Position numbers and translations under genes: made by a program. Under the pieces are notes generated by a model. That model had not been told where the DNA came from and did no database searches. It worked only from the letters and a program-made list of their open reading frames with translations. From contig MTMF02000009.1 in assembly GCA_002011125.2 (NCBI GenBank), positions 1,850,286-1,914,285 on the forward strand: a stretch of DNA of 64,000 nt, read 5' to 3'. Shown one piece after another: positions 8,634-50,055 of the stretch. How positions within the stretch are numbered: position 1 is the stretch's first letter; each line of letters starts with the position of its first letter. This DNA comes from Candidatus Hydrothermarchaeum profundi. Its GTDB lineage: Archaea > Hydrothermarchaeota > Hydrothermarchaeia > Hydrothermarchaeales > Hydrothermarchaeaceae.

Positions 8634-8648
8634 ACAGTTTGATACCTA

Positions 8649-9017: not shown

Positions 9018-9035
9018 TATGGAGGGTAAGGGATA

Positions 9036-9275: not shown

Positions 9276-9330
9276 AATACTTCAATAGCCTCACTCAGAG
9301 AAACCATTATATCAAGCCTTATGGTAGATT

Positions 9331-9992: not shown

Positions 9993-10049
9993 AATAATTC
10001 TCCTTATTATAGCTATTGTCGATTACCGGGCAAAAATTTTATAAAATTT

Positions 10050-11141: not shown

Positions 11142-11213
11142 ATTTCTCTTACCTCCCACCCCCATCTGGGTCCACTAAATATTTAAATATAGTGGGCTAC
11201 ATCAGGATTTAAT

Positions 11214-11486: not shown

Positions 11487-11488
11487 AG

Positions 11489-27753: not shown

Positions 27754-28401
27754 ATGAGTAAAGAAGAGATTTTGAAGAAAGCAGCTGACGCTATTTTAAA
27801 ACAAGACGAGAAGGCTGCTGTTGAAGTTGCAAAGGAAGCGTTAGAAGCGGGTTTAGACCCTGTTGAAGTGATTGAAAAGGGATTTACAGAAGGTATCAGA
27901 GAAGTGGGGGACCTCTTCGATAGGGGTAAGCTTTTTCTCCCGCATGTAATGCTATCAGCAGACGCCATGAAAAAAGCCATCGCAGTTCTTGAGCCTGCTA
28001 TCGGCGAAGGTAAGGGAAAAGAAAAAGTGGGGACCGTCGTAATTGGAACCGTTGAAGGAGATATCCATGAAATCGGGAAAGGAATTGTTTCTATCATGCT
28101 TCAAGTGGCTGGATTCGAGGTCCATGACTTGGGTAGGGACGTGCCATTAAAAAAATTCATAGAAGCCGCAAAGGAAACAAACGCCAACATAGTCGGTGCC
28201 TCAGCTTTAATGACGACTTCCTTACCCGGGCAAAAAGAGCTAATAAATCTGTTGAAAGACGCAGGCATCAGAGATAAGGTTAAGATGATGGTAGGGGGTG
28301 CACCTGCCACTGAGAAATGGGCGCAGAAGATAGGGGCTGACGCCTACGCTGAGAATGCCACAGAGGCTGTGGCAAAGGCAAAAGAATTGGTAACATCATA
28401 A
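27754..28401 (+). CDS. mtbC: Dimethylamine corrinoid protein
   Basis: GDIHEIGK B12 motif, SALMTT; directly upstream of mtbB. Confidence 0.9.
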   Translation: MSKEEILKKAADAILKQDEKAAVEVAKEALEAGLDPVEVIEKGFTEGIREVGDLFDRGKLFLPHVMLSADAMKKAIAVLEPAIGEGKGKEKVGTVVIGTVEGDIHEIGKGIVSIMLQVAGFEVHDLGRDVPLKKFIEAAKETNANIVGASALMTTSLPGQKELINLLKDAGIRDKVKMMVGGAPATEKWAQKIGADAYAENATEAVAKAKELVTS

Positions 28402-28504
28402 GGCCTTCAACCCCCAATCGCCGGTTCGAATGGGTCAAAGGGCCTTTGATGAGAACCAGGGTATAGGTTGAAGGAATATAAAAAAGGAATTAGGAGGTGA
28501 AGTT

Positions 28505-29911
28505 ATGGATTACCGTGTTAGAATTGGAGACGGCTCATTAAAATACCTCTCCAAGAAAGAGATAAAGGAAGACATTGAAGACGGAACCAAGGACGCTGCT
28601 GACCGCGGAGAAATACCAGAACTAACTGATGACGATAAAGAGAGGCTACTTGAAATAGTAACCGAGCCTAATAAGATCGTCAGCGTTTCACCGGGCGAAG
28701 AGGTAGTTATGACAAATGACGTAGGAACACTCACTATCCAAGGTGACCAAGGGAACAGCGGGGTAGGACTACCGCTAGATCGTATACAATGTATACTTAC
28801 TCAAGAGCGTGCTTTTGGATCTGACACAATGGAACTAGCCCACACCGATTACAGCTTCAAACCCGTTAAGCCCATCATAGCAATGGAACAACAAGCTCTC
28901 GAACAGGCAGAACTATTAACAGTGATACCAGTCTTCTATGGAGCAATGCCAAACCTTGGACAGTACTATGTTATAGACGGGCCTTTCCCAAATCCGAATG
29001 ATCTATATAGAGATCTGAAAATAAAAGAAGCTCGCGAGAGCCAGGAGGAATGCGCTGAGCATGCCTCGAACAATATGAGTTGGATAGGTCAAAGACTTTG
29101 GGAGGTAGGATGCGAAGGACTAAACTTCGATACTACCGCCGCAGCCGGAGATACCGACTTCTATGCTACTCTGACAGCTACTGAAGAGTTAAAGAAGACT
29201 ACCTCTGAAATGTGCATAGAAATGGGCATGGCCGCAGAATACGTGCTCGGGATGCATGGGGAGCTAAAATATGGTGGCGAGCTTCTAGCAGGCCTGTATC
29301 CACATCAGCAAGTAAAAGTCGCAGAAAAAGCAGGAGTAGATATATTTGGTCCAGTAGTGAATACCAATACTAGCAAGTCTTTTCCATGGAATATTGCAAG
29401 AGCGCTTACTTTCGTGAAGGAATGCGTAAAACAGTCCAATATACCCATACATGTCAACATGGGAATGGGCGTAGGCGGAATCCCCATGTACGAGACGCCG
29501 CCAGTAGATGCCGTTACAAGGGCTTCTAAGGCAATGGTTCAGATTGCCCACGTCGACGGTATATAGATGGGAGTCGGCGACCCGGTGGGCATGCCTATAA
29601 GCCATATAATGGCATCTGGCATGGGCGGACTTAGAACAGCGGGAGACCTAGTTGCTAGAATGCAGATGAGCAAAAAAATGAGGATTAATGAAGCCAAGGA
29701 GTATGTAGCGAAAAAGCTAAACTTAACTCCAAGCGAGCTCTCAGACGAGTATGTCATGAGAGAAGTGAGAGAAGAGCTGGATATAGGGATTATAACACCA
29801 GTACCGGGAGCAGCGAAAGGGATAGAAGCTAAAGTCAGGATCGCTGAGCTACTGGATATAACTATAAATCCGGTAGAGAGACTAAAAAATAAAGAAAAAT
29901 TCAAAAGCTAA
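28505..29911 (+). CDS. mtbB: Dimethylamine:corrinoid methyltransferase, pyrrolysine at in-frame TAG 29564-29566 (codon 354; 468 aa)
   Basis: Two track ORFs in one frame separated only by TAG; VDGI-O-MGVGDP context matches MtbB. Confidence 0.93.
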
Positions 29912-29950
29912 GTAACCCTCCGGCCAGTAGCTGGCTATGGGTTACTTTAT

Positions 29951-29985
29951 ATCCCCCCAAGCTCTTTGGGGGGATTTATTTTCTC
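29951..29985 (+). terminator. Perfect 10-bp hairpin plus T-rich tract after mtbB
   Basis: ATCCCCCCAA-GCTCT-TTGGGGGGAT-TTATTTT. Confidence 0.7.
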
Positions 29986-30060
29986 TTTGTGTTAAACAAC
30001 TTTTCCAAGCCATATCACTTTCTAAATTTAATGATGTTATAGAGATTTTATATAACCAGT

Positions 30061-30957
30061 ATGTTAGAACTCTACGATAAAGTAAGGAAGGAAATTGTAG
30101 GCAGAGATCGAGAGCTTTTAAGAATTTTATCTGCTTTAGAAGCCAAAAAACATTTGTTACTTGAGGGACCGCCAGGTACCTCAAAGTCAACCATCTTGAG
30201 GACTATAACTAGGCTGTCTAATATCCCTTTTTATCTTTTAGAGGGTAATATCGATTTAACTCCAGCAAAGCTGGTTGGTCACTTTAATCCAGCAGAAGTT
30301 ATATCTGATAATTATAAACCGGAATACTTCAATAAAGGCCCCTTAACAAAAGCCATGGAAGAGGGCGGATTCCTTTATATTGAAGAATTTAATCGAATGC
30401 CGGCAGATGCTACAAATGTGCTATTAGTAGCTATGGAAGAAGGAGAGATAAATATTCCCAGATACGGTAAAGTAGTAGCCAAACCAGGTTTTACCGTGAT
30501 ATGCGCTCAAAACCCTCTTGACGATGTAGGTACTCTTCGTGTGAGCAGAGCATTTCTAGATAGAGTATGCAGAATAAAGCTTGACTATCAATCCGAAGAA
30601 GAAGAAATTAAAATCGTAGAAGAGAGAACAGGAACAAAAAATAAAGACTTAATTAAATTAGCGGTTAAACTGGCAAGAGAAACTAGAGACCATCCCGATT
30701 TGAAATTAGGAGTCTCTATTAGAGGACCTATTGATATGGTTCAAATAGCCGAAAAGATGCTTAGGCTTGATTTAGATGAAAGGGAAGCTCTTTTAGACTC
30801 GATGATGCTGGCTTTCAGCGGAAAAGTATGGCTTGATGAGCTTTCTGAAAAATCTCAAGAAGAGGTCCTAGAAGAAATATTTAATCAAATATATACTCCC
30901 ACGGGCGCTACTAAAAAAAAAGTAAGCCTGGAACTAATAAGAAAGGAGAAGAACTAA
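30061..30957 (+). CDS. MoxR/CoxD-family AAA+ ATPase (0-frame product)
   Basis: LLLEGPPGTSKS, YIEEFNR, AQNP, AFLDR, SIRG. Confidence 0.9.
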   Translation: MLELYDKVRKEIVGRDRELLRILSALEAKKHLLLEGPPGTSKSTILRTITRLSNIPFYLLEGNIDLTPAKLVGHFNPAEVISDNYKPEYFNKGPLTKAMEEGGFLYIEEFNRMPADATNVLLVAMEEGEINIPRYGKVVAKPGFTVICAQNPLDDVGTLRVSRAFLDRVCRIKLDYQSEEEEIKIVEERTGTKNKDLIKLAVKLARETRDHPDLKLGVSIRGPIDMVQIAEKMLRLDLDEREALLDSMMLAFSGKVWLDELSEKSQEEVLEEIFNQIYTPTGATKKKVSLELIRKEKN

Positions 30958-31844
30958 CGCAACTTGAATCTGATGATAGCGAAGAAAAACCAAGCATCGA
31001 TATAGAAAAAGAATTCGAAAAATCCCCATATCATCTCGCGAAATACTTCAATGCTAATCCTGAAGAACTAGCGAAGGTATTCAGTTCTAAGAAAGCTCTT
31101 AAGATATATGGCGATATTTCCAGCATGCTTAAACCTGAAACAAAAGAAATAGCAAAGAAGTATATTAGGAGGCTCATTATAAAACTTGGAGTATCGCTGG
31201 CCAATCCAGGATATCAGCGAGATAAGATTGTTCCCTTGAATGATATAACACTATCAGACGATATCGAGATAGATAGAACAATCGAGAAAATTATACAGGC
31301 CCCGGAACTTCCCTTAGAGGATAACATCACCGTTTTAGGCAGAAAGAAGAAGAAACAAGATATCGTGCTAATGTTAGATAGGAGCTTTTCTATGAAGGGG
31401 ATCAAAACCGTCTTGTCAGCTATAACTGCCTCTGCGATTTCTTTACATTTTAAGGGGAATGTATCTGTCCTATTTTTTAACGATAAATCAAAATTCATTA
31501 AAAAAAGAAACCAAAAGATGGTTTTAGATTCTATAGTAGATAAGATTCTCGATTTAGATGTAGAAGGAGGAACAAATATAAGGAAAGCCCTTGAAATGGG
31601 CCTACAAGAAATATCATCCTCAGACAAAAAAAGAGGACTACTTCTTACAGATGGTAACTGGACGGTAGGAGCTAATCCCTTAAGTGTGGCACAGAAGTAT
31701 GATAAGCTAGACGTAATCTGCTTCCCACCAGCTAATAGTGAGAAATCCAAGCTTTTAGCATTAAAAGGAAACGGAACCCTAGAATATGTTGAAAGGGAAG
31801 AGGATATTTTCAGAGCAATATTAAGCTGCCTACGGCTAAACTAG
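30921..31844 (+). CDS. vWA (CoxE-like) domain, probably the -1 frame continuation of the MoxR gene
   Basis: DRSFSM MIDAS, GGTN, LLTDG; frame is open from 30915, 70 codons before the first ATG (31125). Confidence 0.8.
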   Translation, partial: SKPGTNKKGEELTQLESDDSEEKPSIDIEKEFEKSPYHLAKYFNANPEELAKVFSSKKALKIYGDISSMLKPETKEIAKKYIRRLIIKLGVSLANPGYQRDKIVPLNDITLSDDIEIDRTIEKIIQAPELPLEDNITVLGRKKKKQDIVLMLDRSFSMKGIKTVLSAITASAISLHFKGNVSVLFFNDKSKFIKKRNQKMVLDSIVDKILDLDVEGGTNIRKALEMGLQEISSSDKKRGLLLTDGNWTVGANPLSVAQKYDKLDVICFPPANSEKSKLLALKGNGTLEYVEREEDIFRAILSCLRLN

Positions 31845-32425
31845 TTTTTCATATTATATCCGATGAGCAGAGTACCGTCCTTGCTTTTCTCGCAACCCAG
31901 TAAACGCTTCAAGTATTCATCAGAAGGTGTACAAGGGCTACCTGATACTATATCTTCAAGCTCTTCAAATTCCTGGAGCTCTGGAAAAGGAAGAGGCGGC
32001 ATAAGAAAATAAGGCTTTCCTTTTGGAAGTTTATTCTTATACAGTACAAAGTCAGGACCCATAAAAATAACATCTTTCCTTTTTTTCATTTCTTCCAGCT
32101 TTTTGGATCCAACCCATTCTCCAAGAATCTCCCCATCTTCGTCAACCATTACCACCCACGGGCGGGAGGGTTCCCTAAATGTTTTATCAAATAATATCAC
32201 CCATGTCTCGTCCCTTGATAAAGCCTCGAAAGTACCCTCGTTTAAAAAGTCCATCATGCCTTGTACCGCCCCTCTCTCCTGTGCTTTCTTCTCAAGCCTC
32301 AAAATCTCCTCTTTTTCATCCTGGGTAAGAAGTCTTACATCCAGTACTCCTTTAAGGTTCCTAAGCCTAAACATTATCCTTTCGTGGAGGTCTTTTGTTA
32401 CTCCACTAGTACTAGGCCGTTCCAT
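31841..32425 (-). CDS. Hypothetical protein in the methylamine cluster
   Basis: 194-aa ORF with protein-like composition, overlapping the DUF2284 gene; SGSPCTPSD motif. Confidence 0.7.
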   Translation of the reverse strand: MERPSTSGVTKDLHERIMFRLRNLKGVLDVRLLTQDEKEEILRLEKKAQERGAVQGMMDFLNEGTFEALSRDETWVILFDKTFREPSRPWVVMVDEDGEILGEWVGSKKLEEMKKRKDVIFMGPDFVLYKNKLPKGKPYFLMPPLPFPELQEFEELEDIVSGSPCTPSDEYLKRLLGCEKSKDGTLLIGYNMKN

Positions 32426-32994
32426 CTTACATTCTCCTGCGAAGATAATCCTAATGGCATGCCTATGTTTTTACAGGTCCTATAAACATCTATCCCTACA
32501 CCTTCTAACGAGGGTCTGGCCTTAAAAGGTTGATGACATAACTCCCCTTTTTTAGGGTCAGCGCACTCCTCGCAAAGCTTACAATTACCGCCAATCAGTC
32601 CCGTAGCAAGATAGTAGCCCAGCTTAAAAGCTTCTCTTTCGACTGCATTAACTATCTCATGCAACTTAAGCTCATACTTCTCATAAACCTCTTTCTCAAG
32701 TTTATCCACAAGATTTTTAGAAATAGGCTCATTTGACTTATCTAAAGAATCAACGTTCTCCATCTCAAGCTGAATGAATATTGCCTTTTTATACTTTGAT
32801 AAAATCTTCCTAAATTCATCAAATGGTATGGAATTAGGAGGACAGAAATAATATCTATTATATCCATCGCATGGGGGTACCTGACACTTTAATAAAACCC
32901 GCCTATCCATTACTATCGATCCCACATCAATAATCTTCGCCCTAGTAGCCCCTTCCCTTAGACTAACCTCTACGAGCTTCTCAAGCTTATTCAT
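32398..32994 (-). CDS. DUF2284-family Cys-rich metal-binding protein
   Basis: KC..PC..Y...FCPP, GNCKLCEEC, C..P.KARPSLEGVGIDV; start taken at MNKLEK. Confidence 0.85.
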   Translation of the reverse strand: MNKLEKLVEVSLREGATRAKIIDVGSIVMDRRVLLKCQVPPCDGYNRYYFCPPNSIPFDEFRKILSKYKKAIFIQLEMENVDSLDKSNEPISKNLVDKLEKEVYEKYELKLHEIVNAVEREAFKLGYYLATGLIGGNCKLCEECADPKKGELCHQPFKARPSLEGVGIDVYRTCKNIGMPLGLSSQENVRWNGLVLVE

Positions 32995-33113
32995 TGAATC
33001 CCACCTAAATATTATTTTCCGAGTCCTACTACTCAGATAAACATTAACAAGCCTAAAAAAATTTTCTAGAAACAATTTTATTTTTCGAAGGCAATATTCG
33101 ATGCTGATAGTTT

Positions 33114-34745
33114 ATGAAGAGGTACGGGATTGCTTTGGATATGGGCACTAGCGGTTTCCGCGCCCAAGCGATAGATTTGGATGAGGGGGAAATAATCTCA
33201 ACATCAATTACTCTGCGACATCCTATACCCGGAGCTAACGTTATGGACCATGTGACTTTCGCAATAGACGTTGGAACTGATATAACCCACGACCTAATAG
33301 TAATGACAGTAAACAAGCTAATAACAACCCTAAAAATTGACCCGACAAGAGTAGAAAGACTAGCGGTATGTGGTAATCCCTTTCAGCTTTCACTTTTCCA
33401 AAAACTTGAGATACGAGACCTAGCATACGCGGGGGAATCTAAATTAAAGGCTTTAGGAGTAAAACCGCCTAAAAGAGATGCGACCATAATGGATGCCGAA
33501 ACTATTGGACTCAATATAAACCCTGAGGCAAATGTGCTTATACCCCCAGCGGTAAAACATGAAATAGGAGCAGATGCCTTAGCAATGATGCTAAAAACAG
33601 ATTTCCTCGAAAATTCGCCAAGTATAGTCACAGACTACGGAACTAATGCAGAAATGGCGCTAAATGTAGATGGCCAGATATATTCAGGATCTGCTGCCGC
33701 AGGTCCTGCCCTAGAGGGACAACAAATTAAGGAGGGCATGCTAGCTGCTCCAGGTGCTATATCTGATGTAGATCCTGAAGACTCAAAATGGCGTTGCTCC
33801 GTTTTAAGTAAAGAGCTAATGGCTGAAGAGGGAGACCTAATAGATCCCCGCACTGGAGAAATATTTAAAAAAGGGGTCATGCACGGCAAAGTAAAAGGAA
33901 TAACCGGTACTGGCGTTATAGCTGCTATCGCTAGAGGACTACAAGAAGGGTTGGTTGTACCACCAAAGATTAAGACTCCAGACAATAAGGTCCACCTTCA
34001 AGATGGTATTACGATAACTGAGGATGACATAGTCGAGGCTGGAAAAGCTATAGGAGCTATTAGAGCAGGCCATATGACGTTGATAAATGAAGCTGGAATA
34101 AGTATGGAGGAAGTTGAAACAGCCTATATGGCTGGCGCCTTAGGAACGTATGTAGATGCAATTAAAGCTCAGAAAGTAGGCCTAGTGCCATCTACGTGCA
34201 AAAACCTAGTGCAAGTCGGAAACACCTCTCTTTCACTAGCGAGGGATCTGATTTTTGAACCTGAAAAGCTTGAAGAACTCCAAGATTACGCAAACAAGTT
34301 AAGGGCAAAACATGTTATGTTCGCGATATCAAATACCTTCAGAAACATCTTCGTTATAGAGCTTTCTCTTTGGACTGAAGGAATGCCCTTCAGCATGTAT
34401 AATGACATGTTAAAGATGTATAAATTACCGCCAATACCTATGAAGAATGTCAATGCAAAAGTGAATAAAATTGTTCAGAGAGATATTCCAATACTGGGTA
34501 AATATGGAATCACCGTTGTTGAAGATGTAGGTATAATTCTTTCAACTAGAGTATCAGAGTGCATTTACTGTAAAAAATGTATTAGAGAATGTCCTGAGGA
34601 GGCAATAGAGATAATAGAAAAAGATGGTAAGCGAATAGCATTAATAAGATCTGATAAGTGCAATGGAACAGCGTGTCGAAGGTGCGAGATAATTTGTCCT
34701 AAAAATACCCTTAAGCTAAGAGAACTAAAGATAAATACAACCTAA
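33114..34745 (+). CDS. ramA: Methylamine methyltransferase corrinoid reductive activase (ASKHA + ferredoxin)
   Basis: YGIALDMGTSGFR, HPIPGANVMDH, DYGTNAE, C-terminal 2x[4Fe-4S] Cys motifs. Confidence 0.93.
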   Translation: MKRYGIALDMGTSGFRAQAIDLDEGEIISTSITLRHPIPGANVMDHVTFAIDVGTDITHDLIVMTVNKLITTLKIDPTRVERLAVCGNPFQLSLFQKLEIRDLAYAGESKLKALGVKPPKRDATIMDAETIGLNINPEANVLIPPAVKHEIGADALAMMLKTDFLENSPSIVTDYGTNAEMALNVDGQIYSGSAAAGPALEGQQIKEGMLAAPGAISDVDPEDSKWRCSVLSKELMAEEGDLIDPRTGEIFKKGVMHGKVKGITGTGVIAAIARGLQEGLVVPPKIKTPDNKVHLQDGITITEDDIVEAGKAIGAIRAGHMTLINEAGISMEEVETAYMAGALGTYVDAIKAQKVGLVPSTCKNLVQVGNTSLSLARDLIFEPEKLEELQDYANKLRAKHVMFAISNTFRNIFVIELSLWTEGMPFSMYNDMLKMYKLPPIPMKNVNAKVNKIVQRDIPILGKYGITVVEDVGIILSTRVSECIYCKKCIRECPEEAIEIIEKDGKRIALIRSDKCNGTACRRCEIICPKNTLKLRELKINTT

Positions 34746-34754
34746 ACACTTCTT

Positions 34755-34792
34755 CAAAGAAAAAATAAAAAATAAGGGGAGAAATCCTCCCC
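34755..34792 (-). terminator. Hairpin plus T tract after mtmB (between convergent ramA and mtmB)
   Basis: GGGGAG-N5-CTCCCC, followed on the - strand by TTATTTTTTATTTTTT. Confidence 0.6.
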
Positions 34793-34812
34793 AAAGAGTA
34801 TATTCTTTACCT

Positions 34813-36192
34813 CTACTTGATGTCAACGCCGAGTTCCCGTAGAGTGTTCACGGCCTTATCATACACCTGCAGGTGCTCCTCAGTAGGAACAACCTTAACC
34901 ACGTCATAACACTCCTGGAACCTCTTACCCTTAGGCGCCGTCTTATAGTCACTCTCGTACTTCTTAATCAAATTATCCAAGATCACGTTAACCTCACTGA
35001 TATCCATGCCAGCCACAGCAATAGCCGCCTCACCCATAATCCGGGCCTCCATACCAGTCGTATAATCCAACGCAACGCCCTTAGCACTAGCACTACCACT
35101 AACAAGCTCACGGCCACTAGCAGTGTCAGTAATAGCCTGAGCAGCCGTCTCCAACAAACACATCTCAGTACACGGACCCGCCAACGGATAATACTGGTTC
35201 GAAGTCAACAAATGAGTATTCTCATCAATAGCCCTAGCCGTATGCCCAGCCACCTGCAGGGTCTCACGCGCAGTAGTGATACCCCACCTGATATGGATAG
35301 GCCCATCCAAGTGATAACTCCCATTCAACAAGGTGAAGCTCGTCAAATGAGTAGCCACGTTACAGATCGAGGTCTCCTCGACCCCGCCAGCATAGCCACC
35401 AAAGATAGGCATCTGCTCCACCATAATAATATCACCATTCTGAACCCAACCAGCAATCATATGCAGGCCACCATTATCAATCTTAAGCTCATTCAACTGA
35501 CTGATCTCATGGCTATCACAAGGCCTCAAGCCACCCAGGAGATCCCCGGCAAGACGCCCCGCACTCGTCAAGGGCGTCTCTGGGCCCTAAACCGCCATAT
35601 AGGGTCTCCCAGCCTTACGACAAGCCTCACGGATATAATACAACTCAAACAGAGTAGCCTTAATCTCCCAAGGACTACCGCTAGTAGCCTCATTACCCTC
35701 AATAGTAGCCAACACACCATTCACAATAGTATCCACCGTAGGCTCCTGAGCATAACTCTGAAACATCGGGATAAAAATATCCTCACTAACAGGAGCACCC
35801 GTAGGACCGCCCTGAATAACAGGCTTAAAACCAGGATTACCACGACGCTGCGCCATATCCACTGCGTCCTGATACTCGCCCAACACGAGCTTCCTAGGCG
35901 CCTTCTTAATAGACTCAAGAACCTCGTCCTCAGAGACCCTGATAACCCTTCCGGTGTCAATATTATAGATCCCAGTCTCCACCAACATCTCCAAGCCGGC
36001 CTGGAACAAGTTATCAATCAGCTCACTGTCCGTAGGAATAATCTCACCCGAAAACTTGATGTTATACTTCTCCTTCATCTTAGCAGCATTCTGCGGGATA
36101 ATCTTATAATCCCAGTCACGCTCACTAACCTTCTCCCCACTAATCGACCTATTATAGGTCTCATACACATCTAAAGGCCTACCAACCGCCAA
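34813..36192 (-). CDS. mtmB: Monomethylamine:corrinoid methyltransferase, pyrrolysine at in-frame TAG 35587-35589 (codon 202; 459 aa)
   Basis: AGRPYMAV-O-GPETPL context; Pyl at codon 202 as in Methanosarcina MtmB; SD GGAGGTGA before TTG. Confidence 0.95.
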
Positions 36193-36227
36193 AACAACTC
36201 ACCTCCAACAATAAACAATTATTATCC

Positions 36228-36872
36228 TTAGTCGCCAACAAGCTCCTTCGCAATCCTCACAGCCTCAGCACCATTCGGACAATAAGCGTCACCGCCAATC
36301 TCATCCACCCACTCCTGGTTAACAGGCGCACCGCCAAACAACGTCTTCACCTTATCCCGGATCCCAGCCTCCTTCAAAGCCTTAACAATCTCCCTCTGAC
36401 CAGGACGCGTAGTAGTCATAAGAGCACTAGCACCAACGATATCAGCATTAACCTCCTTAGCGGTCTCAACGAACTTATCGATAGGAGCATCCCGGCCAAT
36501 ATCAATCACATCAAAGCCAGCGCCCTGAAGCATAGCAGCAACAACGTTCTTACCGATCTCATGGATATCCCCCTCAACAGTACCGATAACCACTACCTTA
36601 CCCATCTTCTCCCCAGACTCCATGATCTTAGGCTTCAAGACCTCAAGACCCGCCTGCATAGCCTCCGCAGCCATCAAGATCTGAGGCAAAAAGATCTTGG
36701 CCTCATCAAAAAGGTCGCTGATAGTCATCATACCCCTACCCAAGCCGTCATTAATAGCCTCAAAAGGCTCAATGCCCGCCTCCAACGCCTCCTTAGCCGC
36801 AGAGCTAGCCAAGTCAGCATCATAGGTCTCCACGGCTTTCTTCAACTTATCAAGAATCTCCTGCTTAAACAA
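36228..36872 (-). CDS. mtmC: Monomethylamine corrinoid protein
   Basis: GDIHEIGKN, SALMTTT; directly upstream of mtmB. Confidence 0.9.
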   Translation of the reverse strand: MFKQEILDKLKKAVETYDADLASSAAKEALEAGIEPFEAINDGLGRGMMTISDLFDEAKIFLPQILMAAEAMQAGLEVLKPKIMESGEKMGKVVVIGTVEGDIHEIGKNVVAAMLQGAGFDVIDIGRDAPIDKFVETAKEVNADIVGASALMTTTRPGQREIVKALKEAGIRDKVKTLFGGAPVNQEWVDEIGGDAYCPNGAEAVRIAKELVGD

Positions 36873-36978
36873 GCCAAATCACCCCCGAATCCAAAAAACC
36901 TTTTTCTTAATTTATTATATGTTCTTATGGTTTAAATGTTACGGTTCCAAAAAAATAAAAAAAAGGAAGAAAGGGAAA

Positions 36979-37245
36979 TCACTCGGATTTCTCGGTTGCT
37001 TTTTTGAGTTCTTCTATGAAGCCCTCATAACCAGGCAACGTCCCTTCTTCCAGCCATTTATCCACAGCTTCTTCGTATTCCTGGTTTTCCATTTTAATCT
37101 GCCAGTAGTGCCACCAGATCCAGAGTAGTGTTGAGATTGCTACGAAGAGTTTTGTCAAACCCCACAGAGGCGATACAACCTCCATGTTCTCTGCACCAGT
37201 CCAGTCTGTTACTCCTGTTGCAATTAACAGCATTATGCTTACCAT
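36979..37245 (-). CDS. Small membrane protein coupled to the Amt gene
   Basis: TM segment LFVAISTLLWIWW; overlaps the Amt stop; SD GAGGTGA. Confidence 0.65.
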   Translation of the reverse strand: MVSIMLLIATGVTDWTGAENMEVVSPLWGLTKLFVAISTLLWIWWHYWQIKMENQEYEEAVDKWLEEGTLPGYEGFIEELKKATEKSE

Positions 37246-38843
37246 CTCAACTCACCTCGTTCCTCAAACTCTTTTTGTAGCCTTATAGCATCCTTTATTA
37301 AGTCCTCTGGACTCGGCACTCCGAGGTAATCTTTTCTACCAGTGTCTTTACTGTACGCATTGATATTCAATAGTAGGTTTCTCCCAGGCTTAGAACCCTG
37401 CTTAGCTTTTAATAGGATTCTATGAGCCTCGATTCCCTGGACCTTATCGATCTCCGAGAAGTCCTCTGGCCTGTATGGTGGGAAATACGGGTACATTTCA
37501 CCGACTGCTGGAGAAGCTATATCAAGTCCTGCAAGCTCTACTAGCGGTGGAACTCTGAGTAATCCTAGCTTCTTGAATATCCAGCTAGCACCAAAGCCGA
37601 AGAGGAATGCCCAACCTGCTTCCCAAACTGCAAGCATGAAATTACCCCAAGGCGTGGTTACCCCTTGTAGTTCGTCGAAACCAAGAGGACCTCCTCCGGC
37701 AGGATATCCCCAAAGCAATATGCCTGCATATATAAGTCCTAGTACTCCCGAATAGCCGTGGACAGCACACGCTCCTACTGCGTCGTCGATCTTGAATCTC
37801 TTTTCTACCCAGTAGTGTAGCTTATATATTATTGGAATGGTTATGAACCCTAGGAGAAACGCTTGCATCGGGTGATAAAGATCGTTTCCTGCCGAGGCTG
37901 CGATGACTCCAGCAAGCCCTCCTGAAAAAATCCAGAAGGGATTCCCTTTGCTCGCGAAGAATCCTCCCATGAAACCTCCGGTTAGAGACAATAAGAAGTT
38001 GGTCCCAATAGCAGAATTACTTGTTGGATTACCATATATGTTAACCGTTCCCCAATAGGACATCTCCATTGTCGGATCCCATGCTAGGGCTGTCGGTATG
38101 TTGCAAGCAAAATAGAATCCCCAGAACCCTGTATATATAAGGAACAATCCTATACATGTCAACCACTGGTTGTGGAGAGGGACATCCCTTGGATTTCCCT
38201 TTTCATCGAATCTTCCAATTCTAGGTCCCAAGTTTATTAGAACTCCAAGAGTATACCATCCCGCAATAGTGTGGATAATGCCACTAGCGTATGCATCGTG
38301 AGAGCCAAAGTATTTTACAGTCCATCCCCAGGGAGACCACGCCTGAGATGCTAGCCAGATCCATACAAAGGACCCTAGGAATACTGACATTAACAAAAAT
38401 GCTCCTACTCTGCACCTTTCAATAACCGCACCAGAAAGGATTGAGCCCTCTGTCAGAGAAAAGAGCAGGAACGCTGCCCAGAATGCTAACATAAAGTGGT
38501 CCTGCATATGCGTTGTCATCAATGGACTCCACGGAGCATAATCGGCTGGATCAACTATCTCTGGATATTGCCCTGGTATCAGGAAAGTGGACCAATGAGG
38601 ACCTGAGAATGCTGCATACACCCACCATCCGAAGATATAGAACGTGAAGATGATGAGTGGGAACAGCATTGCATTTTTCATCAGCGTATGACCAACGTTC
38701 TTCCTTCTAGACACCCCGACTTCGTATGTACAGAATCCTACGTGTATCAGGAACATGACTATCACTGTCACCCAGTAATACCACTCCTGATACAGATACG
38801 CTAACTGCCATATTCTTTCAGCTAGCGGATACGGTTCTACCAT
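37239..38843 (-). CDS. Amt-family (methyl)ammonium transporter
   Basis: GF..YEVG..R.KN, SGAVIER, twin His (SGIIH, AVHG), LGPRIGRF; start at ATG 38843 after AGGAGGTG. Confidence 0.88.
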   Translation of the reverse strand: MVEPYPLAERIWQLAYLYQEWYYWVTVIVMFLIHVGFCTYEVGVSRRKNVGHTLMKNAMLFPLIIFTFYIFGWWVYAAFSGPHWSTFLIPGQYPEIVDPADYAPWSPLMTTHMQDHFMLAFWAAFLLFSLTEGSILSGAVIERCRVGAFLLMSVFLGSFVWIWLASQAWSPWGWTVKYFGSHDAYASGIIHTIAGWYTLGVLINLGPRIGRFDEKGNPRDVPLHNQWLTCIGLFLIYTGFWGFYFACNIPTALAWDPTMEMSYWGTVNIYGNPTSNSAIGTNFLLSLTGGFMGGFFASKGNPFWIFSGGLAGVIAASAGNDLYHPMQAFLLGFITIPIIYKLHYWVEKRFKIDDAVGACAVHGYSGVLGLIYAGILLWGYPAGGGPLGFDELQGVTTPWGNFMLAVWEAGWAFLFGFGASWIFKKLGLLRVPPLVELAGLDIASPAVGEMYPYFPPYRPEDFSEIDKVQGIEAHRILLKAKQGSKPGRNLLLNINAYSKDTGRKDYLGVPSPEDLIKDAIRLQKEFEERGELRW

Positions 38844-39274
38844 AGAATACACCTCCTAATCGTTTCCTCCCCCCTTAGGTACTTCCCTTCTATCACTTAA
38901 GCACCTCCTACTAACCTCTTTGGACTAGGCAAGTTGGGGTTTAGTGGGTTATGTTATTTAAAATTTTCTATTTTGAATTGTAGTGAATATGATTCTTTTT
39001 CTTAAGAAATGTATTAATTAATGCTATTATCAAGTTAAAATACTTTATAAAATCTGAAAATTAAAAATAAATAACAATATGATATTGTTAGCTAAAATAA
39101 TTCTTATTTAATCTTTAAAATATTCCCTTAGAAGGTAATGTAACGAAAATTAAAATATCCCATAACATCACGCACCAGCTTCTTATTTTCAGCTTACTTT
39201 AGTAGTGTAAGCAAAAAGTTTTTATGATGACTCATAGAATCATGGGAAGTTAGAAAATAGAATACTGTGATATC

Positions 39275-39892: not shown

Positions 39893-39940
39893 GATTTCTT
39901 GAGTCAACTTTTATTATATTCTCTTTCTCTATCATAGGAT

Positions 39941-42429: not shown

Positions 42430-42455
42430 GAGCACTGTGTAGAGAAAAAGGTCTT

Positions 42456-43793: not shown

Positions 43794-43805
43794 CTCACTA
43801 ATCTA

Positions 43806-43879
43806 GGGCGGGTGGTCTAGATGGTTATGACGGCAGTCTCACACACTGCAGGTCGAGGGTTCGAATCCCTCCCCGCCCA
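43806..43879 (+). tRNA. tRNA-Val(CAC)
   Basis: GGGCGGG acceptor, GCAGT-CT-CAC-AC-ACTGC anticodon arm, GGTTCGAATCC. Confidence 0.93.
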
Positions 43880-43967
43880 TATATCTGAGTCATCAACTGA
43901 GTTAATAGATTTGACTTAAGAAAAAGAGCATACGGCAAGGCATCTACGATAAAAGATTTTAACTACG

Positions 43968-44966: not shown

Positions 44967-45011
44967 TGGTTATACACATCCTTGATGTGACTATTAAGGC
45001 TTATTGAAAAC

Positions 45012-45767
45012 TCAACGTATTAGGAGTACGTTAGTCTTTGCGTTTTCTAGCACGTAGAGAGACACATGCCCTAATAAGGCCCTCTCTAATTTGCCAAGAC
45101 CTCTAGGAGCTAATGCAACCAGGTCATAATGATTCGCGTTTTGAAGAATTACATCTCTAACCTGGCCCCCCTCTATCAGCTTTTTCACATTCTTTATCGA
45201 GAGCTGATTTAACATTTCTGCTGCCTTATTTACCGCTTCCTCTCTCTTTTTCTGCTCTTTATTTTCCCTAGCTACCGACAAAACCGTTATTTCTCCTTCT
45301 AAGCCCTTAGCAAACATGCCTGCAAATTTCACGGCACGGCTTGAATGCTTACTCCCATCTGTACAAACGAGGATTTTCTCTAACTTATCCCCCTTACGGT
45401 ATATTAACGTTGGAATATGGGAGTATTCAGCGATTTTTTTTGTAAGTTTTTTATCAGTATCTTTCATTAAAAGTAAATCATAGTGTTTTTCTGCCTCATC
45501 AAGAACCTGTGAGGCAACCGCTCCTCCTCTTTTAAGCATTACAACTTCCTCGCCAAGGCACTTTATTATCTTTTTTAGTGCTTTTTTCTCTTCTTCAGGT
45601 ATTTTTCCAAGTTGTATGCTAAAAGGAGAGTAATATTTCTGCGTTATATCACTTCTAACACATAGCGCTGTTATTTTTCCTTTTAGTGAGGTACAGAGTT
45701 TCATCGCAATTCTAACAAGCCCTTCACTCTCCTGGTAAGGGGGACATAACATAAGTAATATATGCAT
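45012..45767 (-). CDS. Tandem universal stress protein (UspA)
   Basis: ILVCTDGS..S..AV, RGLG...LLGHVS. Confidence 0.85.
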   Translation of the reverse strand: MHILLMLCPPYQESEGLVRIAMKLCTSLKGKITALCVRSDITQKYYSPFSIQLGKIPEEEKKALKKIIKCLGEEVVMLKRGGAVASQVLDEAEKHYDLLLMKDTDKKLTKKIAEYSHIPTLIYRKGDKLEKILVCTDGSKHSSRAVKFAGMFAKGLEGEITVLSVARENKEQKKREEAVNKAAEMLNQLSIKNVKKLIEGGQVRDVILQNANHYDLVALAPRGLGKLERALLGHVSLYVLENAKTNVLLIR

Positions 45768-47500
45768 CAGCTCACTCTCACCTTCTCACATTCGTTGAAT
45801 ACGTTTTTACTACATTCTCTACAAATACTTTTATCTAAGTAATAGTTAAAAGCACTTGAGATTGCCTCCTTCTTTGTCTCATGTACTTCTAGGTGCTCAA
45901 TCAGTCCTTCTTTTGACAGCGAGTTAACAATCTCTTCTTCAACATGGATGAGTATGAGCCTTATATTTCTCCTTTCCATCTCATCTACTAAATCTCTAAG
46001 GGCTTCGATTCCTGAGGTGTCCATATAATAGACTGCAGCCATATCTATTATAAGACATTTCATACGATTGCATTTTTCAACTAAATGTAAGATTTCGTCT
46101 CTAATTTGCTCGGCGTTAACAAATATAAAAGGTCCTTCTGGTTTTATTATGAAAAGCTGATCGCACCAGCTTTTTGGCTCTTCAGGTATGGAAATAAAAT
46201 ATCCTGTTTCTTTATCTCTCACAGTAAAATAGATCTTGGTATGCATCGTCTTCCACAAATGAAGAGCGAGAGCTAATACCACGCCTACTATTAGACCGGT
46301 GTCGGGCTTTGTAATTATAGAAACTCCGAAGGTAGTGAAAGCTACCAAGCCGTCATATCTATTTATCCTGTATATCTCCAAAAGTTGCCTTGGCTTAAAA
46401 AGCTTCATTACAGCTAAGATAACGATTACAGCTAAGATGAACTTTGGAAGATAATAAAAGAGAGGTGTTAAAACAGTGATCGAGAGTAATACGAAAAAAC
46501 TGAATATTATTATAGACATGCCAGTACGTGCACCGCTTGACCAATTAACACTAGTACCCGAAAAGCTTCCACAAACAGGATATCCTTGGAAAAGAGAAGT
46601 TAATATATTTGCCAGACCTTGAGCTCTAAATTCTTGTTCAAAATCTACTTTCTCTTTTGTATGATAGATTATAATCTTGGAAATAGAGTATGTTTCAGTC
46701 ATGCCAACTATTGCGATAAGTGCTGCTGACAGCAATAACCCCGGGATGTTAGAAAATCCTGTAATATCCGGAAGAGTGGGCATAGGAAAACCCTTGGGCA
46801 ACGCTCCAACTATCTCTACCCCCGTCTTCTCCATACCAAAGAGGTACACCACAAAAGTAAAGAAAATCAGCATAGTTATTATATCAGGAAACTTTGGATA
46901 GCGTTTCCGGACGAATATCATCACCAAAAAACTGGCTAATGACAGAGAAAATACTAGGACATTAATATTTGAAAGATTATTGACAACATTCAAAAGCATA
47001 AGTATTACATAATCTTCATTAGAACCATGTAACCCTAGGATATATCTTAGCTGAGTTATGGTGATTATTAATGCGGCAGCATTTACAAATCCTATAACAG
47101 CGGCGTGAGAGATAAGATGGAGGATAAATGTCAGATGAAGAACAGCAATGCTCAAAATTATAACACCGACCATTAAGGAAAGCAACGCCGCTAAAGATAC
47201 ATACTCATTTGATCCCGGTTGAGCTATTGGTGAGAGAGCTGTAAACACAAGCATTGTCATAACACCTACAGGTCCTGTAAAAAGTAAGCGGTTACTCCCA
47301 AATAATATACTAACGAGCGGTGCTACGAAACTGGCATATAGTCCATAAATTGGAGGCAACCCCGCAACGAGAGCATACGCCATAGCCTTCGGTATCATGC
47401 TAACGCCTAAGGATACCCCCGCCACAAAATCGAAATACAGATACCTAGACTTATAATTTTTCAACCAAGTGAGTGCCGGTATAAGTTTTTCAAGGTTCAT
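45767..47500 (-). CDS. SulP/SLC26 anion transporter with STAS domain
   Basis: PKAMAYA..AGLPPIYGLY, STAS IDMAAVYYMDTSG. Confidence 0.92.
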   Translation of the reverse strand: MNLEKLIPALTWLKNYKSRYLYFDFVAGVSLGVSMIPKAMAYALVAGLPPIYGLYASFVAPLVSILFGSNRLLFTGPVGVMTMLVFTALSPIAQPGSNEYVSLAALLSLMVGVIILSIAVLHLTFILHLISHAAVIGFVNAAALIITITQLRYILGLHGSNEDYVILMLLNVVNNLSNINVLVFSLSLASFLVMIFVRKRYPKFPDIITMLIFFTFVVYLFGMEKTGVEIVGALPKGFPMPTLPDITGFSNIPGLLLSAALIAIVGMTETYSISKIIIYHTKEKVDFEQEFRAQGLANILTSLFQGYPVCGSFSGTSVNWSSGARTGMSIIIFSFFVLLSITVLTPLFYYLPKFILAVIVILAVMKLFKPRQLLEIYRINRYDGLVAFTTFGVSIITKPDTGLIVGVVLALALHLWKTMHTKIYFTVRDKETGYFISIPEEPKSWCDQLFIIKPEGPFIFVNAEQIRDEILHLVEKCNRMKCLIIDMAAVYYMDTSGIEALRDLVDEMERRNIRLILIHVEEEIVNSLSKEGLIEHLEVHETKKEAISSAFNYYLDKSICRECSKNVFNECEKVRVS

Positions 47501-47902
47501 TTATATTCCCTAAGTAACCTCCCATGCAACACCCTTTAACATTCAAAAGTAAATTATCCTACATCAAAAATCATGATATCGGAATCACCGGAATTCATAT
47601 CAATCATAAATACTTAAAGTTTACTACTATTCTTTAGTTTCTTCCTATTATCCAAAACCGCCTTCATAAGACTTTTATATCACAAAAAAAGAAAAAAAAT
47701 AGAGGTGGATTTTTTGAATTTAAATCTTCATTTAGATAGGGTTAGATGGGGGTATTAGACGGAAAATTTTAAACATTTTTTACATAATATTACGCGTTTT
47801 ATCGCTATCCTTATGCTTATGTATTATCTAAAAAATGAACGCACTAAAAGAGTCCCAAAAGGAGGTGGACTTATCGGATATTAAATGTAAGGAGGTATAC
47901 CC

Positions 47903-48553
47903 ATGAGCAAAGATGAGATAATAAAGGCGGCTAAAGAAGCCATCCACAGCTTTGATGCAGACAAAGCAGTGGAAGTTGCAAAAAAAGCTATAGAAGAGGG
48001 GGTTGACCCAGTAGAGGTCATTGAGAAAGGCTTCACAGTAGCGATGCGTGAAGTAGGAGACCTATTCGACCAAGAGAAACTATTTCTCCCTCACGTTATG
48101 GCAGCAGCAGAAGCTATGAAAGCGGCTATAAATGAGCTTACTCCCCATATTAAAGCAGGAGCAAAAACCTCTGAAGCCATGGGCACCGTAGTAATAGGAA
48201 CAATTGAAGGGGATATCCACTCTATTGGTAAAGATATTGTTGCAACCATGCTAAAGATAGCCGGGTTTGATGTCTACGACTTAGGTAGAGACGTACCGTT
48301 AACGGAATTTGTAAACAAGGCAAAGGAAGTAAACGCCAACATCGTTGGAAGTTCTGCTCTGATGACAACAACCATGCCCAACCAAAAAGCTCTAGAAGAA
48401 TCCTTGAAGAGGGCAGGTATTAGAGAGAAAGTTAAGACAATGGTAGGTGGAGCACCAGCTACACAAGAATGGGCAGATAAAATAGGGGCTGACGCTTACG
48501 CTGAGAATGCAAGTGAGGCTATTCTTAAAGCCAAAGAGCTAGTTACAAAATAA
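47903..48553 (+). CDS. mttC: Trimethylamine corrinoid protein
   Basis: GDIHSIGKDIV, SALMTTT; upstream of mttB. Confidence 0.9.
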   Translation: MSKDEIIKAAKEAIHSFDADKAVEVAKKAIEEGVDPVEVIEKGFTVAMREVGDLFDQEKLFLPHVMAAAEAMKAAINELTPHIKAGAKTSEAMGTVVIGTIEGDIHSIGKDIVATMLKIAGFDVYDLGRDVPLTEFVNKAKEVNANIVGSSALMTTTMPNQKALEESLKRAGIREKVKTMVGGAPATQEWADKIGADAYAENASEAILKAKELVTK

Positions 48554-48570
48554 AGAAGGAGGTGAAATAA

Positions 48571-50055
48571 TTGAAAGAAGTTTTAGAGGCAGGTGTCGAC
48601 AGACTTTACGGGGCAGGATTAAACCTGTTTACTAAAGATGAACTCTACGCAATACACGAGGCTACTATGGACGTACTAATGGACCCGGGTATTATGGTTA
48701 CAGAGGAAGACGCTAGAAAAGTATTCGAAGAAAACGGGTGCATTGTAAACCACAAAGAGAAAAACGTTAAGATCCCAGAATATCTCGTGAGAAGAGCTTT
48801 ACAGACCGCTCCATCGAAGTTCCTATTAGCTGGTAGAGATAAGAAATTCGACGTAGTACAAGAAGCAGGAAAAAAAGTAAACTTTACAACCTTTGGTACA
48901 GGAGTAAGGGTCTTTAGATTTATAAATGGCAAACCAACTATCCGAGACTCAACCGAGGCAGATATCGCAGAAACTGCTATTTTAACAGACTGGTGTGAAA
49001 ATATAGAGTACTTTTCTTTACCTGTGTCTGCAAGAGACTGGTCAGACAAAGGAGCACAAGATGTCCATGAGCTTTTCACGTCACTGACAAATACGGCAAA
49101 ACACTTCCAGCATATTGACCCCGTAGGAGATAACATCGACATATACTATGAAATGGGAAAAGCCTTCTACGGAGGCGATGAAGAAGAGTTTAGAAAAAGA
49201 CCGATCTTTTCAATACTCTTATGCCCAACCAGCCCACTGCAACTCCACGATAATGGTACTAAAGTTATCATGAAAGGGGCAGATTATGGAATACCCGTCA
49301 ATGTATTAAGCATGGCTATGTCTGGAGCTACATCTCCTGTACATTTAGCTGGGACTCTAGTAACTCACAACGCTGAAGTACTTGCAGGAATAGTACTATC
49401 ACAACTATACCGCCCTGGAGCACCGGTTTGGTATGGTAGCTCAACTACTACCTTCGACTTAAAAAAAGGAACAGCCCCGGTTGGATCCCCCGAGCTGGGA
49501 TTAATCAGTGCGGCGGTGGCACAATTAGCCCAATATTATGGGCTCCCAAGCTTCGTCGCCGGCACTTAGGCTGATTCCAAAATACCGGATGCACAGGCGG
49601 GCCATGAGAAAACAATTACCACCCTGCTACCAGCTTTGGCAGGTGCCAATACAATATACGGTGCAGGAATGCTTGAGTTGGGCATGACGTTTAGCAGCGC
49701 CCAACTATTGATTGACAACGATATCATCCAAATGGTCCGCAAGGCTGTGCTTGGAATAGAGGTTTCTGAGGAAACTCTTTCTCTAGATGCCATAAAGAAA
49801 GTGGGTATAGGAAAGGACTTTCTAGCTTTGAAACAGACTAGAGACCTAATTGACTTACCCTCGGCGCCTTTGTTGATAAATAGGCTTATGAGGGGAGATT
49901 GGGAGCGTGCCGGCAGTAAAGATCTAGCGACCGTCGCACAGGAGAAAGCTGATGAAATAGTTAAAACACATGAAGTACTGCCGATCGATAAAGACATTCT
50001 AAAGGAAATGGAGAGTGTTCTTAAAAAAGCGGATAAAGCTGCGATATCGGCATAA
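48571..50055 (+). CDS. mttB: Trimethylamine:corrinoid methyltransferase, pyrrolysine at in-frame TAG 49567-49569 (codon 333; 494 aa)
   Basis: [21 protein letters not shown] context; frame stays open to TAA at 50055; SD AGGAGGTGA. Confidence 0.95.

Follow-up and report, generated by a model that had tools for sequence, protein, structure and literature searches.

A pyrrolysine-dependent methylamine gene set in a Hydrothermarchaeota archaeon without detectable mcr, and candidates for its methyl-acceptor step

We find that a 64,000-nt stretch of the genome of Candidatus Hydrothermarchaeum profundi (from here on the window; C9:1850286–1914285 of the assembly, genome label G000) carries what is, as judged from its sequence, an intact gene set for pyrrolysine (Pyl)-dependent demethylation of methylamines in a non-methanogenic archaeon of the Hydrothermarchaeota. 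MtmB, MtbB and MttB, the methyltransferases for monomethylamine (MMA), dimethylamine (DMA) and trimethylamine (TMA), are each encoded with one in-frame TAG. An earlier note on this DNA had described such a system, and all the genes that it named lie where it had placed them (Table 1); this includes three corrinoid proteins and RamA, all of which score above the cut-offs of their families (TIGR02370 and TIGR04270). Positions with the prefix C8 or C9 refer to contigs of the assembly, and bare positions to the window.

Methylamine methyltransferases and their TAG codons

The three methyltransferases align with their families across the TAG. Residues 2–461 of MtbB match positions 4–463 of the TIGR02368 model, residues 16–488 of MttB match positions 2–469 of TIGR02369, and MtmB aligns with the solved structure 1TV2 without a gap, residues 5–456 on 5–456. 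The earlier note had placed each TAG at the known position of Pyl, and the alignments to models and structures bear this out. In mtbB the TAG (29564–29566) is codon 354 and falls on model position 356 of TIGR02368 (an offset-2 match), and the frame is open through the TAG only. In mtmB it is codon 202 (35587–35589), which aligns with residue 202 of solved M. barkeri MtmB (1TV2/1L2Q; ungapped), a residue that we take to be the Pyl site. In mttB it is codon 333 (49567–49569), aligned with residue 334 of the solved MttB 7XCM, presumably Pyl. RamA matches TIGR04270 over residues 4–539 (model positions 1–533), its C-terminal ferredoxin part included, and the mtbC-like protein scores 287 bits against the MtbC equivalog model, under the cut-off of 350.

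The TAG of mttB is retained far beyond this genome. A metagenome scan with MttB gave 60 loci of 62–88% identity, with no near relative among them; 9 of the 60 ended before residue 332 and were dropped, and in all the others (51/51) the TAG stands directly after query residue 332, a degree of conservation that is far from chance. Related contigs from two other runs are about 96–99% identical to mttC and mttB over the fragments compared, and the TAG-spanning contig of a related run, which is about 97% alike, retains the mttB TAG. The differences listed for mttB are synonymous in 21 of 23 cases, and downstream of the TAG in 13 of 14, as read from contigs only in four runs, of which two are possibly the source of this DNA and hence not independent, the pattern coming from the other two (X3 and X4). 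Three of the differences downstream of the TAG precede the first possible restart codon. We suggest that the part of mttB after the TAG is under selection, which would lend indirect support to Pyl insertion at UAG.

The gene set for decoding UAG as Pyl (tRNA-Pyl(CUA), PylS, PylB, PylC and PylD) is also complete in the genome. It forms a cassette in the order pylT-pylSn-pylSc-pylB-pylC-pylD at C9:1317278–1321652, with all six genes adjacent and intact. The tRNA-Pyl, with anticodon CTA, was found by aragorn at C9:1321583–1321652; the five protein genes follow it directly downstream on the same strand, and PylSn scores 97.5 bits (cut-off 51), PylSc 294.6 bits (cut-off 178), PylB 452.2 bits (cut-off 348), PylC 380.1 bits (cut-off 248) and PylD 221.9 bits (cut-off 150). 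The earlier note had reasoned that in a complete genome with no pyl genes the methyltransferase genes would be truncated, and it had called for a search for pylS, pylB, pylC, pylD and pylT; all of them were found.

Further members of the system lie elsewhere on the same scaffold. A second MtbB at C9:239778–241148 (51% identity by tblastn; 463.9 bits on TIGR02368) has an in-frame TAG at the homologous motif and is paired with a divergent cognate corrinoid protein, the two together covering C9:239079–241148 (L086 5070–7166); an aldehyde:ferredoxin oxidoreductase-like gene and an aminotransferase adjoin this locus. By tblastn with the proteins of the window the genome holds seven corrinoid proteins of the methylamine type in total, and one member of the MttB superfamily. 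There is also a distant MtmB homologue at C9:1059688–1061031 (L087 5685–7046; 34.5% identity) with no in-frame TAG and, by eye, a valine at the Pyl position; it adjoins a methanogenesis-marker-11 homologue (322 bits, cut-off 256) and a radical SAM protein, with no corrinoid protein nearby.

TAG is a common stop codon in this organism. Genome-wide it terminates 299 of 1677 long non-overlapping open reading frames (ORFs) (17.8%), and after TAG the next in-frame stop comes at a median of 8 codons, compared with 7 after TGA and 10 after TAA; in this Pyl-encoding genome nothing indicates that TAG is avoided or secured by special back-up stops. The mtmB gene, too, is terminated by TAG (34813–34815), followed by one sense codon and then a back-up stop (34807–34809, minus strand). 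Such usage is what one would expect if the window held a decaying relic of horizontal transfer, in which the TAG terminates and the truncated methyltransferases are inactive. We regard this as very improbable, given that four genes show full-length, high-scoring matches through the TAG, that substitutions downstream of the mttB TAG are nearly all synonymous, that all six pyl genes are intact (above cut-off), and that RamA and the cognate corrinoid proteins are intact as well.

Host genome and origin of the methylamine genes

The host is assigned to the Hydrothermarchaeota, as a deep-subsurface archaeon outside the methanogens. The assembly comprises 2.19 Mb in 19 contigs, is 97.65% complete with 1.46% contamination, and has 39% GC. 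The window lies in scaffold C9, which is 1.9 Mb long and has three 100-N gaps; the other 18 contigs of the assembly are small. Directly after the last base of the window come 23 N (C9:1914286–1914308). The tgtA gene stands between the mtm and mtt clusters, and its product is most similar to proteins of metagenome-assembled genomes (MAGs) titled Hydrothermarchaeaceae, Hydrothermarchaeales or Hydrothermarchaeota, at 53–58% identity; the next-best group of matches stands at 40–47%.

No match to mcrA or mcrB was found in the genome, with controls recovered in M. jannaschii and M. acetivorans, and mcrA was found in none of 31 genomes of the order (0/31), the host's own included. MtrA (PF04208) gave no match in the genome either, nor was MtaB found there. 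With mcrA, mcrB and MtrA not found, and within the limits of an assembly that is 97.65% complete and has three 100-N gaps, the organism thus belongs to no known type of methanogen. This agrees with the earlier note, which had placed the DNA in an archaeon outside the classical methylotrophic methanogens; the combination of mcr and mtbA, by which it would have recognized an ordinary methylotrophic methanogen, was not found, since there is no mcrA or mcrB match and no protein reaches the MtbA equivalog cut-off. One could still imagine such a methanogen with mcr and mtr lost in the gaps of C9 or among the 18 small contigs, or a window that is a mis-binned or chimeric piece of one. We find this barely credible. 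mcrA, mcrB, MtrA and the coenzyme M (CoM) synthase MMP16 would all have to be missing at this completeness and mcrA from the whole order; the window sits inside a 1.9-Mb scaffold that also encodes DsrA, with a Hydrothermarchaeales-like tgtA between its mtm and mtt clusters; and the mttC-mttB stretch is covered by contigs of an independent run.

The methylamine genes have probably been acquired horizontally. MttB exceeds its cut-off in 1/38 genomes of the phylum and 1/35 of the order, and PylS in 1/35 genomes of the order, the one genome being in each case that of the host; the restriction of MttB to one genome of the phylum suggests such an acquisition. The closest MttB fragments are from uncultured archaea (82%, 75% and 74% identity), followed by Methanosarcinales at 60–68%. 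The methylamine genes have 44–50% GC, compared with 36–41% for the neighboring housekeeping genes and 39% for the genome, and the Amt-family gene (46.1%) resembles the mtm genes in this. Raised GC is found in four blocks (27754–29911, 34813–38852, 47903–50055 and 54754–56148), which gives the cluster the appearance of a mosaic of inserts in host sequence. Taken by itself, the raised GC might also have its cause in amino-acid content or in the level of expression.

The remaining genes of the region are of several kinds. Those between mtbB and ramA (MoxR/GvpN-like, VWA and DUF2284) have host-like GC; a minus-strand frame at 31214–32425, open with TAG readthrough, was rejected as a gene, since it matches no family and overlaps with the VWA gene. 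The interval from the mtm to the mtt cluster holds tgtA and further housekeeping genes, for a DedA/UptA-like membrane protein, a beta-propeller-repeat protein, an alcohol dehydrogenase, a Usp-like protein and SulP. Candidates for the permeases that the earlier note had mentioned are the Amt-family, SulP and NCS1-family genes, the last of which (54754–56148) we take to be a possible methylamine permease. Of the context genes that the same note had listed, mtd stands, the metF and SerRS genes have best matches of the expected type that remain below cut-off, and the ORF read as metV (15715–16407) has no NCBIfam match.

Candidate exits for the methyl group

The earlier note saw no CoM-methylating step and, more generally, an unknown methyl acceptor. 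For the window this holds, as none of the URO-D/MtaA-family, mcr or pyl matches of the whole-genome searches falls inside it, which leaves it without mtbA, mtaA, mcr and pyl genes as the note had said. For the genome it does not. The acceptor step is unproven, but the genome holds candidates for it of two kinds, two MtaA/MtbA-like proteins with zinc ligands and two MtrH-family proteins.

The MtaA/CmuA family has eight paralogues in the genome. This count leaves out C8:78470–79498 on a separate 135-kb contig, a classical HemE (URO-D 443 bits), which we excluded as an MtaA/CmuA-type methyltransferase because it is a true HemE beside haem-type ORFs; its neighbors, which together with it cover C8:76090–79498, are ferrochelatase-like and protoporphyrinogen-oxidase-like (by eye, from motifs), an arrangement that is unusual for an archaeon. 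Two of the paralogues are standalone MtaA/MtbA-like proteins, 61% identical to each other (C9:1321811–1322818 and C9:1599536–1600537), and score 374 and 369 bits on NF004889, the methylcobalamin:CoM methyltransferase subfamily (cut-off 244). The search for mtbA in the genome that the earlier note had called for came out negative at the equivalog level, the best score being 289.8 bits on NF041608 (cut-off 600), and the best score on the MtaA equivalog (345.5 bits, cut-off 400) is likewise below. The first of the two genes starts about 160 bp away from pylT, is divergent from it and precedes ORFs for cobalt transport and cobamide biosynthesis (by eye from N-termini). Its product scores 238 bits against solved MtaA 4AY7, with the His-x-Cys and distal Cys motifs aligned; in the MtaA/CmuA family these motifs are presumably the zinc ligands. 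Over the order the MtaA-like subfamily exceeds its cut-off in 17/35 genomes.

The search for mtrH or mtgA, also proposed in the earlier note, turned up two MtrH-family genes, at C9:1592155–1593075 and C9:1594158–1595105, with 327 and 377 bits on NF002142 (cut-off 287). The product of the first resembles the D. hafniense methylcorrinoid:tetrahydrofolate (THF) methyltransferase 6SJ8 (278 bits) more than the Mtr-complex MtrH 9QTP (211 bits), and scores 305 bits on the MtgA model, under the equivalog cut-off of 550. The other scores highest with 8Z9U_B (221 bits), then 6SJ8 (191.5) and 9QTP (165); for 8Z9U no mention was found in a literature search. Both genes lie in an island (C9:1584–1600 kb) that also encodes methyltransferases of the URO-D family, corrinoid proteins, an activase of the RACo type and an MFS transporter. 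They have the marks of soluble MtrH-family enzymes, in that the family match is there, the genome has no MtrA match, and a corrinoid protein and RACo are adjacent. Across the order MtrH-family genes are present in 21/35 genomes. The MtgA-like copy belongs to a module at C9:1584734–1593075 (L053 1734–10075) that further encodes two URO-D-family proteins, a corrinoid protein, an MFS transporter and an Fe-S protein, together with a Tat-signal NMT1-like binding protein, a cupredoxin-like protein and a LysR-type regulator (Tat and LysR by eye).

For the fate of the methyl group beyond the acceptor, the genome has, next to Mtd, two Mer genes over cut-off and CdhC. DsrA (454.6 bits, cut-off 393) is encoded on the same scaffold as the window and has a DsrB-like neighbor, and an AprA-like match reaches 483 bits, under the cut-off of 642. 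The earlier proposal that the amines are demethylated for Wood-Ljungdahl oxidation or acetogenesis is thus supported as regards Mtd, Mer and CdhC, and stays unproven as regards the acceptor.

We favor a non-methanogenic demethylation of methylamines that feeds methyl-tetrahydromethanopterin (methyl-H4MPT), most likely through an MtrH-like enzyme, and we give this reading about even chances. RamA would reduce the corrinoid proteins to Co(I), and MtmB, MtbB and MttB, going by their families, would move a methyl group from MMA, DMA and TMA onto MtmC, MtbC and MttC, with the Pyl that these methyltransferases require being supplied by the cassette at C9:1317278–1321652, whose genes are all in place. 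The methyl-Co(III) corrinoid would then most likely be demethylated by a soluble MtrH-family methylcorrinoid:pterin methyltransferase, giving methyl-H4MPT; the pterin is likely to be H4MPT and not THF, as suggested by the H4MPT pathway genes. Methyl-H4MPT could be oxidized to CO2 by way of Mer, Mtd and the remaining methyl-branch enzymes, or enter acetyl-CoA through carbon monoxide dehydrogenase/acetyl-CoA synthase (CODH/ACS), and in the oxidative case electrons might go to a DsrAB-type sulfite or sulfate respiration. The MtaA/MtbA-like enzyme beside pylT may provide an alternative or additional exit. The transfer of a methyl group from methyl-CoM to methyl-H4MPT costs about 30 kJ/mol, and we prefer a direct transfer from corrinoid to H4MPT because the methyl-CoM route is uphill by that amount and the sodium-driven Mtr complex was not found, which would leave direct transfer as the one productive way to oxidation or to acetyl-CoA.

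Several points weigh against this reading. No MtrH-like gene adjoins any of the methylamine clusters; both lie about 300 kb away with URO-D/corrinoid pairs of their own, so that their cognate carriers may be those corrinoid proteins and not MtmC, MtbC or MttC. The MtaA/MtbA-like enzyme next to the pyl cassette favors a route through CoM, as do the cysteate synthase and ComDE encoded in the genome. As TAG ends about 18% of the long ORFs, Pyl insertion must coexist with frequent termination at the same codon. The AprA match is below cut-off, and full sulfate reduction is therefore not established. Finally, all functions named here are read from sequence.

The main rival, and not a weak one, is that the methyl group leaves through the MtaA/MtbA-like zinc methyltransferases onto CoM or a related sulfonate thiol. 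CoM would then be a methyl hub, linked to H4MPT by a soluble module of MtaA-like, corrinoid, RACo and MtrH-like proteins, or the methyl-thiol would have another fate. We consider this possible, although on balance unlikely. It gains from the scores of both MtaA-like proteins on NF004889, from the motifs that the pylT-side copy shares with 4AY7 and its nearness to pylT, and from genes for CoM precursors. Cysteate synthase (TIGR03844, 495 bits, cut-off 325) and a fused ComDE (TIGR03845, 183 bits, cut-off 148; TIGR03846, 236 bits, cut-off 221.5) are both above cut-off, and at C9:1572315–1578557 HdrD-like and HdrE/QmoC-like genes are followed by cysteate synthase, ComDE and an SsuA-like protein. 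A pair resembling the Hdr-like one there (C9:1576443–1578557) is found in the window at 6047–8045 (+), encoding a QmoC/HdrE-like membrane protein and an HdrD/TfrB-like iron-sulfur protein. In a relative, G025, one co-directional operon joins the genes for the MtaA-like protein, corrinoid protein, RACo and MtrH-like protein to those for cysteate synthase, ComDE and the SsuA-like protein, with an HdrD-like gene upstream and divergent (the Hdr-like genes there were found by tblastn, and the HdrD-like one alone is family-confirmed); a second relative, G023, shows this arrangement as far as its contig reaches. Cysteate synthase, ComDE and the SsuA-like protein stay together as a trio in 4/5 genomes examined (G000, G025, G011 and G026), the fifth being cut short. 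ComD exceeds its cut-off in 13/35 genomes of the order, and of the 14 genomes that match ComD, 12 match the MtrH family as well, a count among kin that are not independent and on which we base no statistical claim.

What speaks against the CoM route is, in the first place, that both MtaA-like proteins stay below the MtaA and MtbA equivalog cut-offs, and that no known enzyme for the last step of CoM synthesis was found: the genome has no match over cut-off to the CoM synthase MMP16 (TIGR03287), no match to COG1900/HcyBio (PF01837), and ComA was not found in it. In the literature MMP16/ComF is the CoM synthase and the COG1900 protein the L-ASST back-up (PMC12068725). Since neither MMP16 nor COG1900 turned up in the genome, the SsuA-like protein may be considered a candidate for the reaction that is missing, the formation of the thiol. 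Methyl-CoM would moreover, without Mcr or a membrane Mtr, be a dead end for oxidation, at the energetic cost given above. Orthologues of the MtaA-like protein (50–57% identity) also occur in Hydrothermarchaeota without methylamine genes, which indicates that the enzyme has another primary role in the lineage.

The operon link points to a methyl-transfer module tied to CoM or a sulfonate thiol in archaea that lack Mcr, and this link between CoM-precursor and methyl-transfer genes may be new; no paper naming both 'Hydrothermarchae' and 'sulfopyruvate' was found in a search that did not extend to supplementary tables. One could speculate, and we think it rather doubtful, that the Hydrothermarchaeales without Mcr and Mtr run a soluble CoM-linked hub (MtaA-like, corrinoid protein, RACo and MtrH-like), in which the SsuA-like protein could replace the missing CoM synthase and into which the acquired Pyl and methylamine genes plug by way of a duplicated MtaA-like gene beside pylT. 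If this were true, CoM would be a methyl carrier outside methane or alkane metabolism in archaea.

A different kind of alternative concerns the purpose of demethylation. The Amt-family transporter beside mtmB and mtmC, which shares their raised GC, could mean that the main role is the release of ammonium from methylamines as a nitrogen source, or the supply of methyl groups for biosynthesis, and not energy or carbon catabolism. This seems improbable to us: four Pyl methyltransferases with their corrinoid proteins and a Pyl cassette would be a large investment, the methyl group would still need disposal by one of the routes above, and a complete oxidative methyl branch and CODH/ACS are present.

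Table 1. Features of the window, and the CoM-precursor operon of relative G025, with the family matches on which their names are based.
Feature	Position	Strand	Match
mtbC-like corrinoid protein, cognate of MtbB	27754–28401	+	TIGR02370 271 bits (cut-off 215.3)
mtbB, dimethylamine:corrinoid methyltransferase	28505–29911	+	TIGR02368 678.8 bits (cut-off 369.1)
ramA, ATP-dependent reductive activase of methylamine corrinoid proteins	33114–34745	+	TIGR04270 790.6 bits (cut-off 500)
mtmB, monomethylamine:corrinoid methyltransferase	34813–36192	-	Pfam MtmB (PF05369) 770 bits
mtmC-like corrinoid protein	36228–36872	-	TIGR02370 251.7 bits (cut-off 215.3)
mttC-like corrinoid protein	47903–48553	+	TIGR02370 277.5 bits
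mttB, trimethylamine:corrinoid methyltransferase	48571–50055	+	TIGR02369 706.9 bits (cut-off 525)
Amt-family transporter, candidate (methyl)ammonium carrier, adjoins mtmC	37239–38852	-	TIGR00836 169 bits (below cut-off of 343)
SulP, permease candidate	45767–47500	-	
NCS1-family permease	54754–56148	+	Pfam Transp_cyt_pur 59.7 bits; TIGR00800 70 bits (below cut-off); GC 44.3%
MoxR/GvpN-like AAA+ ATPase	30061–30957	+	Pfam AAA_5 75 bits; GvpN model 82 bits (below cut-off); GC 37.6%
VWA (CoxE-like) protein, partner type of MoxR ATPases	31125–31844	+	Pfam VWA_CoxE 41.5 bits; GC 37.1%
DUF2284 predicted metal-binding protein, divergent from ramA	32398–33075	-	Pfam DUF2284 146 bits
mtd, F420-dependent methylene-H4MPT dehydrogenase	10323–11165	-	NF002162 391 bits (cut-off 297)
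MetF-like methylene-tetrahydropterin reductase	16400–17287	+	Best matches are MetF models, all below cut-off
Archaeal/methanogen-type SerRS	59246–60808		Best matches are serS_MJ-type models, below cut-off
CoM-precursor operon locus of G025	L076 (G025:C123) 3701–11684; further trio loci L077, L078, L079		

Comparison with known systems

The methylamine systems of the Methanosarcinaceae are built from the same families of substrate methyltransferase (MT1), corrinoid protein and RamA, with Pyl at the same positions. MtmB scores 560 bits against M. barkeri MtmB1 and MttB 759 bits against solved MttB 7XCM, and in its N-terminal part MttB shares 68% identity with its counterpart in Methanosalsum zhilinae. 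The system described here differs in that Mcr, the Mtr complex and MMP16 were not found and nothing reaches the MtbA equivalog cut-off, in that PylS is split into PylSn and PylSc, in that TAG is a common stop, and in its Hydrothermarchaeota host with DsrA.

Much of this has been reported before for the phylum. Genes for methylated-amine methyltransferases were described in one Hydrothermarchaeota MAG, as was the presence of mtrH and of no mcr subunits across Hydrothermarchaeota genomes, with the remark that a different fate of methyl-CoM is possible (Carr et al., 2019; PMC6775978). For a MAG, entry into the Wood-Ljungdahl pathway was proposed for MMA, DMA and TMA as well as for methanol (Zhou et al., 2020; PMC6946796); as to methanol, MtaB was not found here. 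pylSBCD and the arrangement of PylSn and PylSc were noted in a Hydrothermarchaeota genome (Sun et al., 2021; Guo et al., 2022; PMC9723677, PMC9630628). With methylamine, mtrH and pyl genes all on record, the finding is already known in kind and its novelty is low; the earlier note, which implied a new case, overstated this for a case in print since 2019–2022 (PMC6775978, PMC6946796, PMC9723677, PMC9630628). The passages of these accounts that bear on the subject name no enzyme that takes the methyl group off the corrinoid, and neither cysteate synthase and ComDE nor an operon link to an MtrH module. What we contribute is a confirmation, together with candidates for the acceptor step, namely two MtrH-like and two MtaA-like genes and a conserved link to CoM precursors.

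A close parallel to the proposed acceptor step is the Mto system (MtoABCD) of Methermicoccus shengliensis and Archaeoglobus fulgidus, in which the MtrH-like MtoA took the methyl group off a corrinoid protein when given a pterin but not when given CoM (PMC8630106). Its components correspond to those found here: a URO-D-family methyltransferase, a corrinoid protein, an activase of the RACo type and a soluble protein resembling MtrH. In the genome studied here the four gene types stand together at C9:1594158–1598866 with an MFS transporter nearby, and this module is not adjacent to the methylamine genes. The published description (PMC8630106), as far as it concerns these genes, has no link to CoM precursors, whereas the module of G025 is in one operon with such genes. 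MtgA of D. hafniense (6SJ8), a bacterial MtrH-family corrinoid:acceptor methyltransferase (MT2), offers a second parallel: the protein encoded at C9:1592155–1593075 scores higher with it than with Mtr-complex MtrH. It differs in that the score here is below the MtgA equivalog cut-off, and in the acceptor, which here would likely be H4MPT and not THF, going by the pathway genes.

Pyl-dependent use of methylamines outside the methanogens means that methylamines of the subsurface and of vents could be consumed without production of methane, and here Pyl decoding coexists with ordinary termination at TAG. Methylamine or methanol MT1 and corrinoid genes without Mcr have also been described in Sifarchaeia and Brockarchaeota, the Sifarchaeia with Pyl recoding as well, and in the relevant parts of those reports the MT2 step is either assigned to MtbA or called undescribed (PMC9723677, PMC8065059). 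Compared with these, the present archaeon belongs to a different phylum, has all three types of Pyl methyltransferase, and offers both MtaA-like and MtrH-like candidates for that step.

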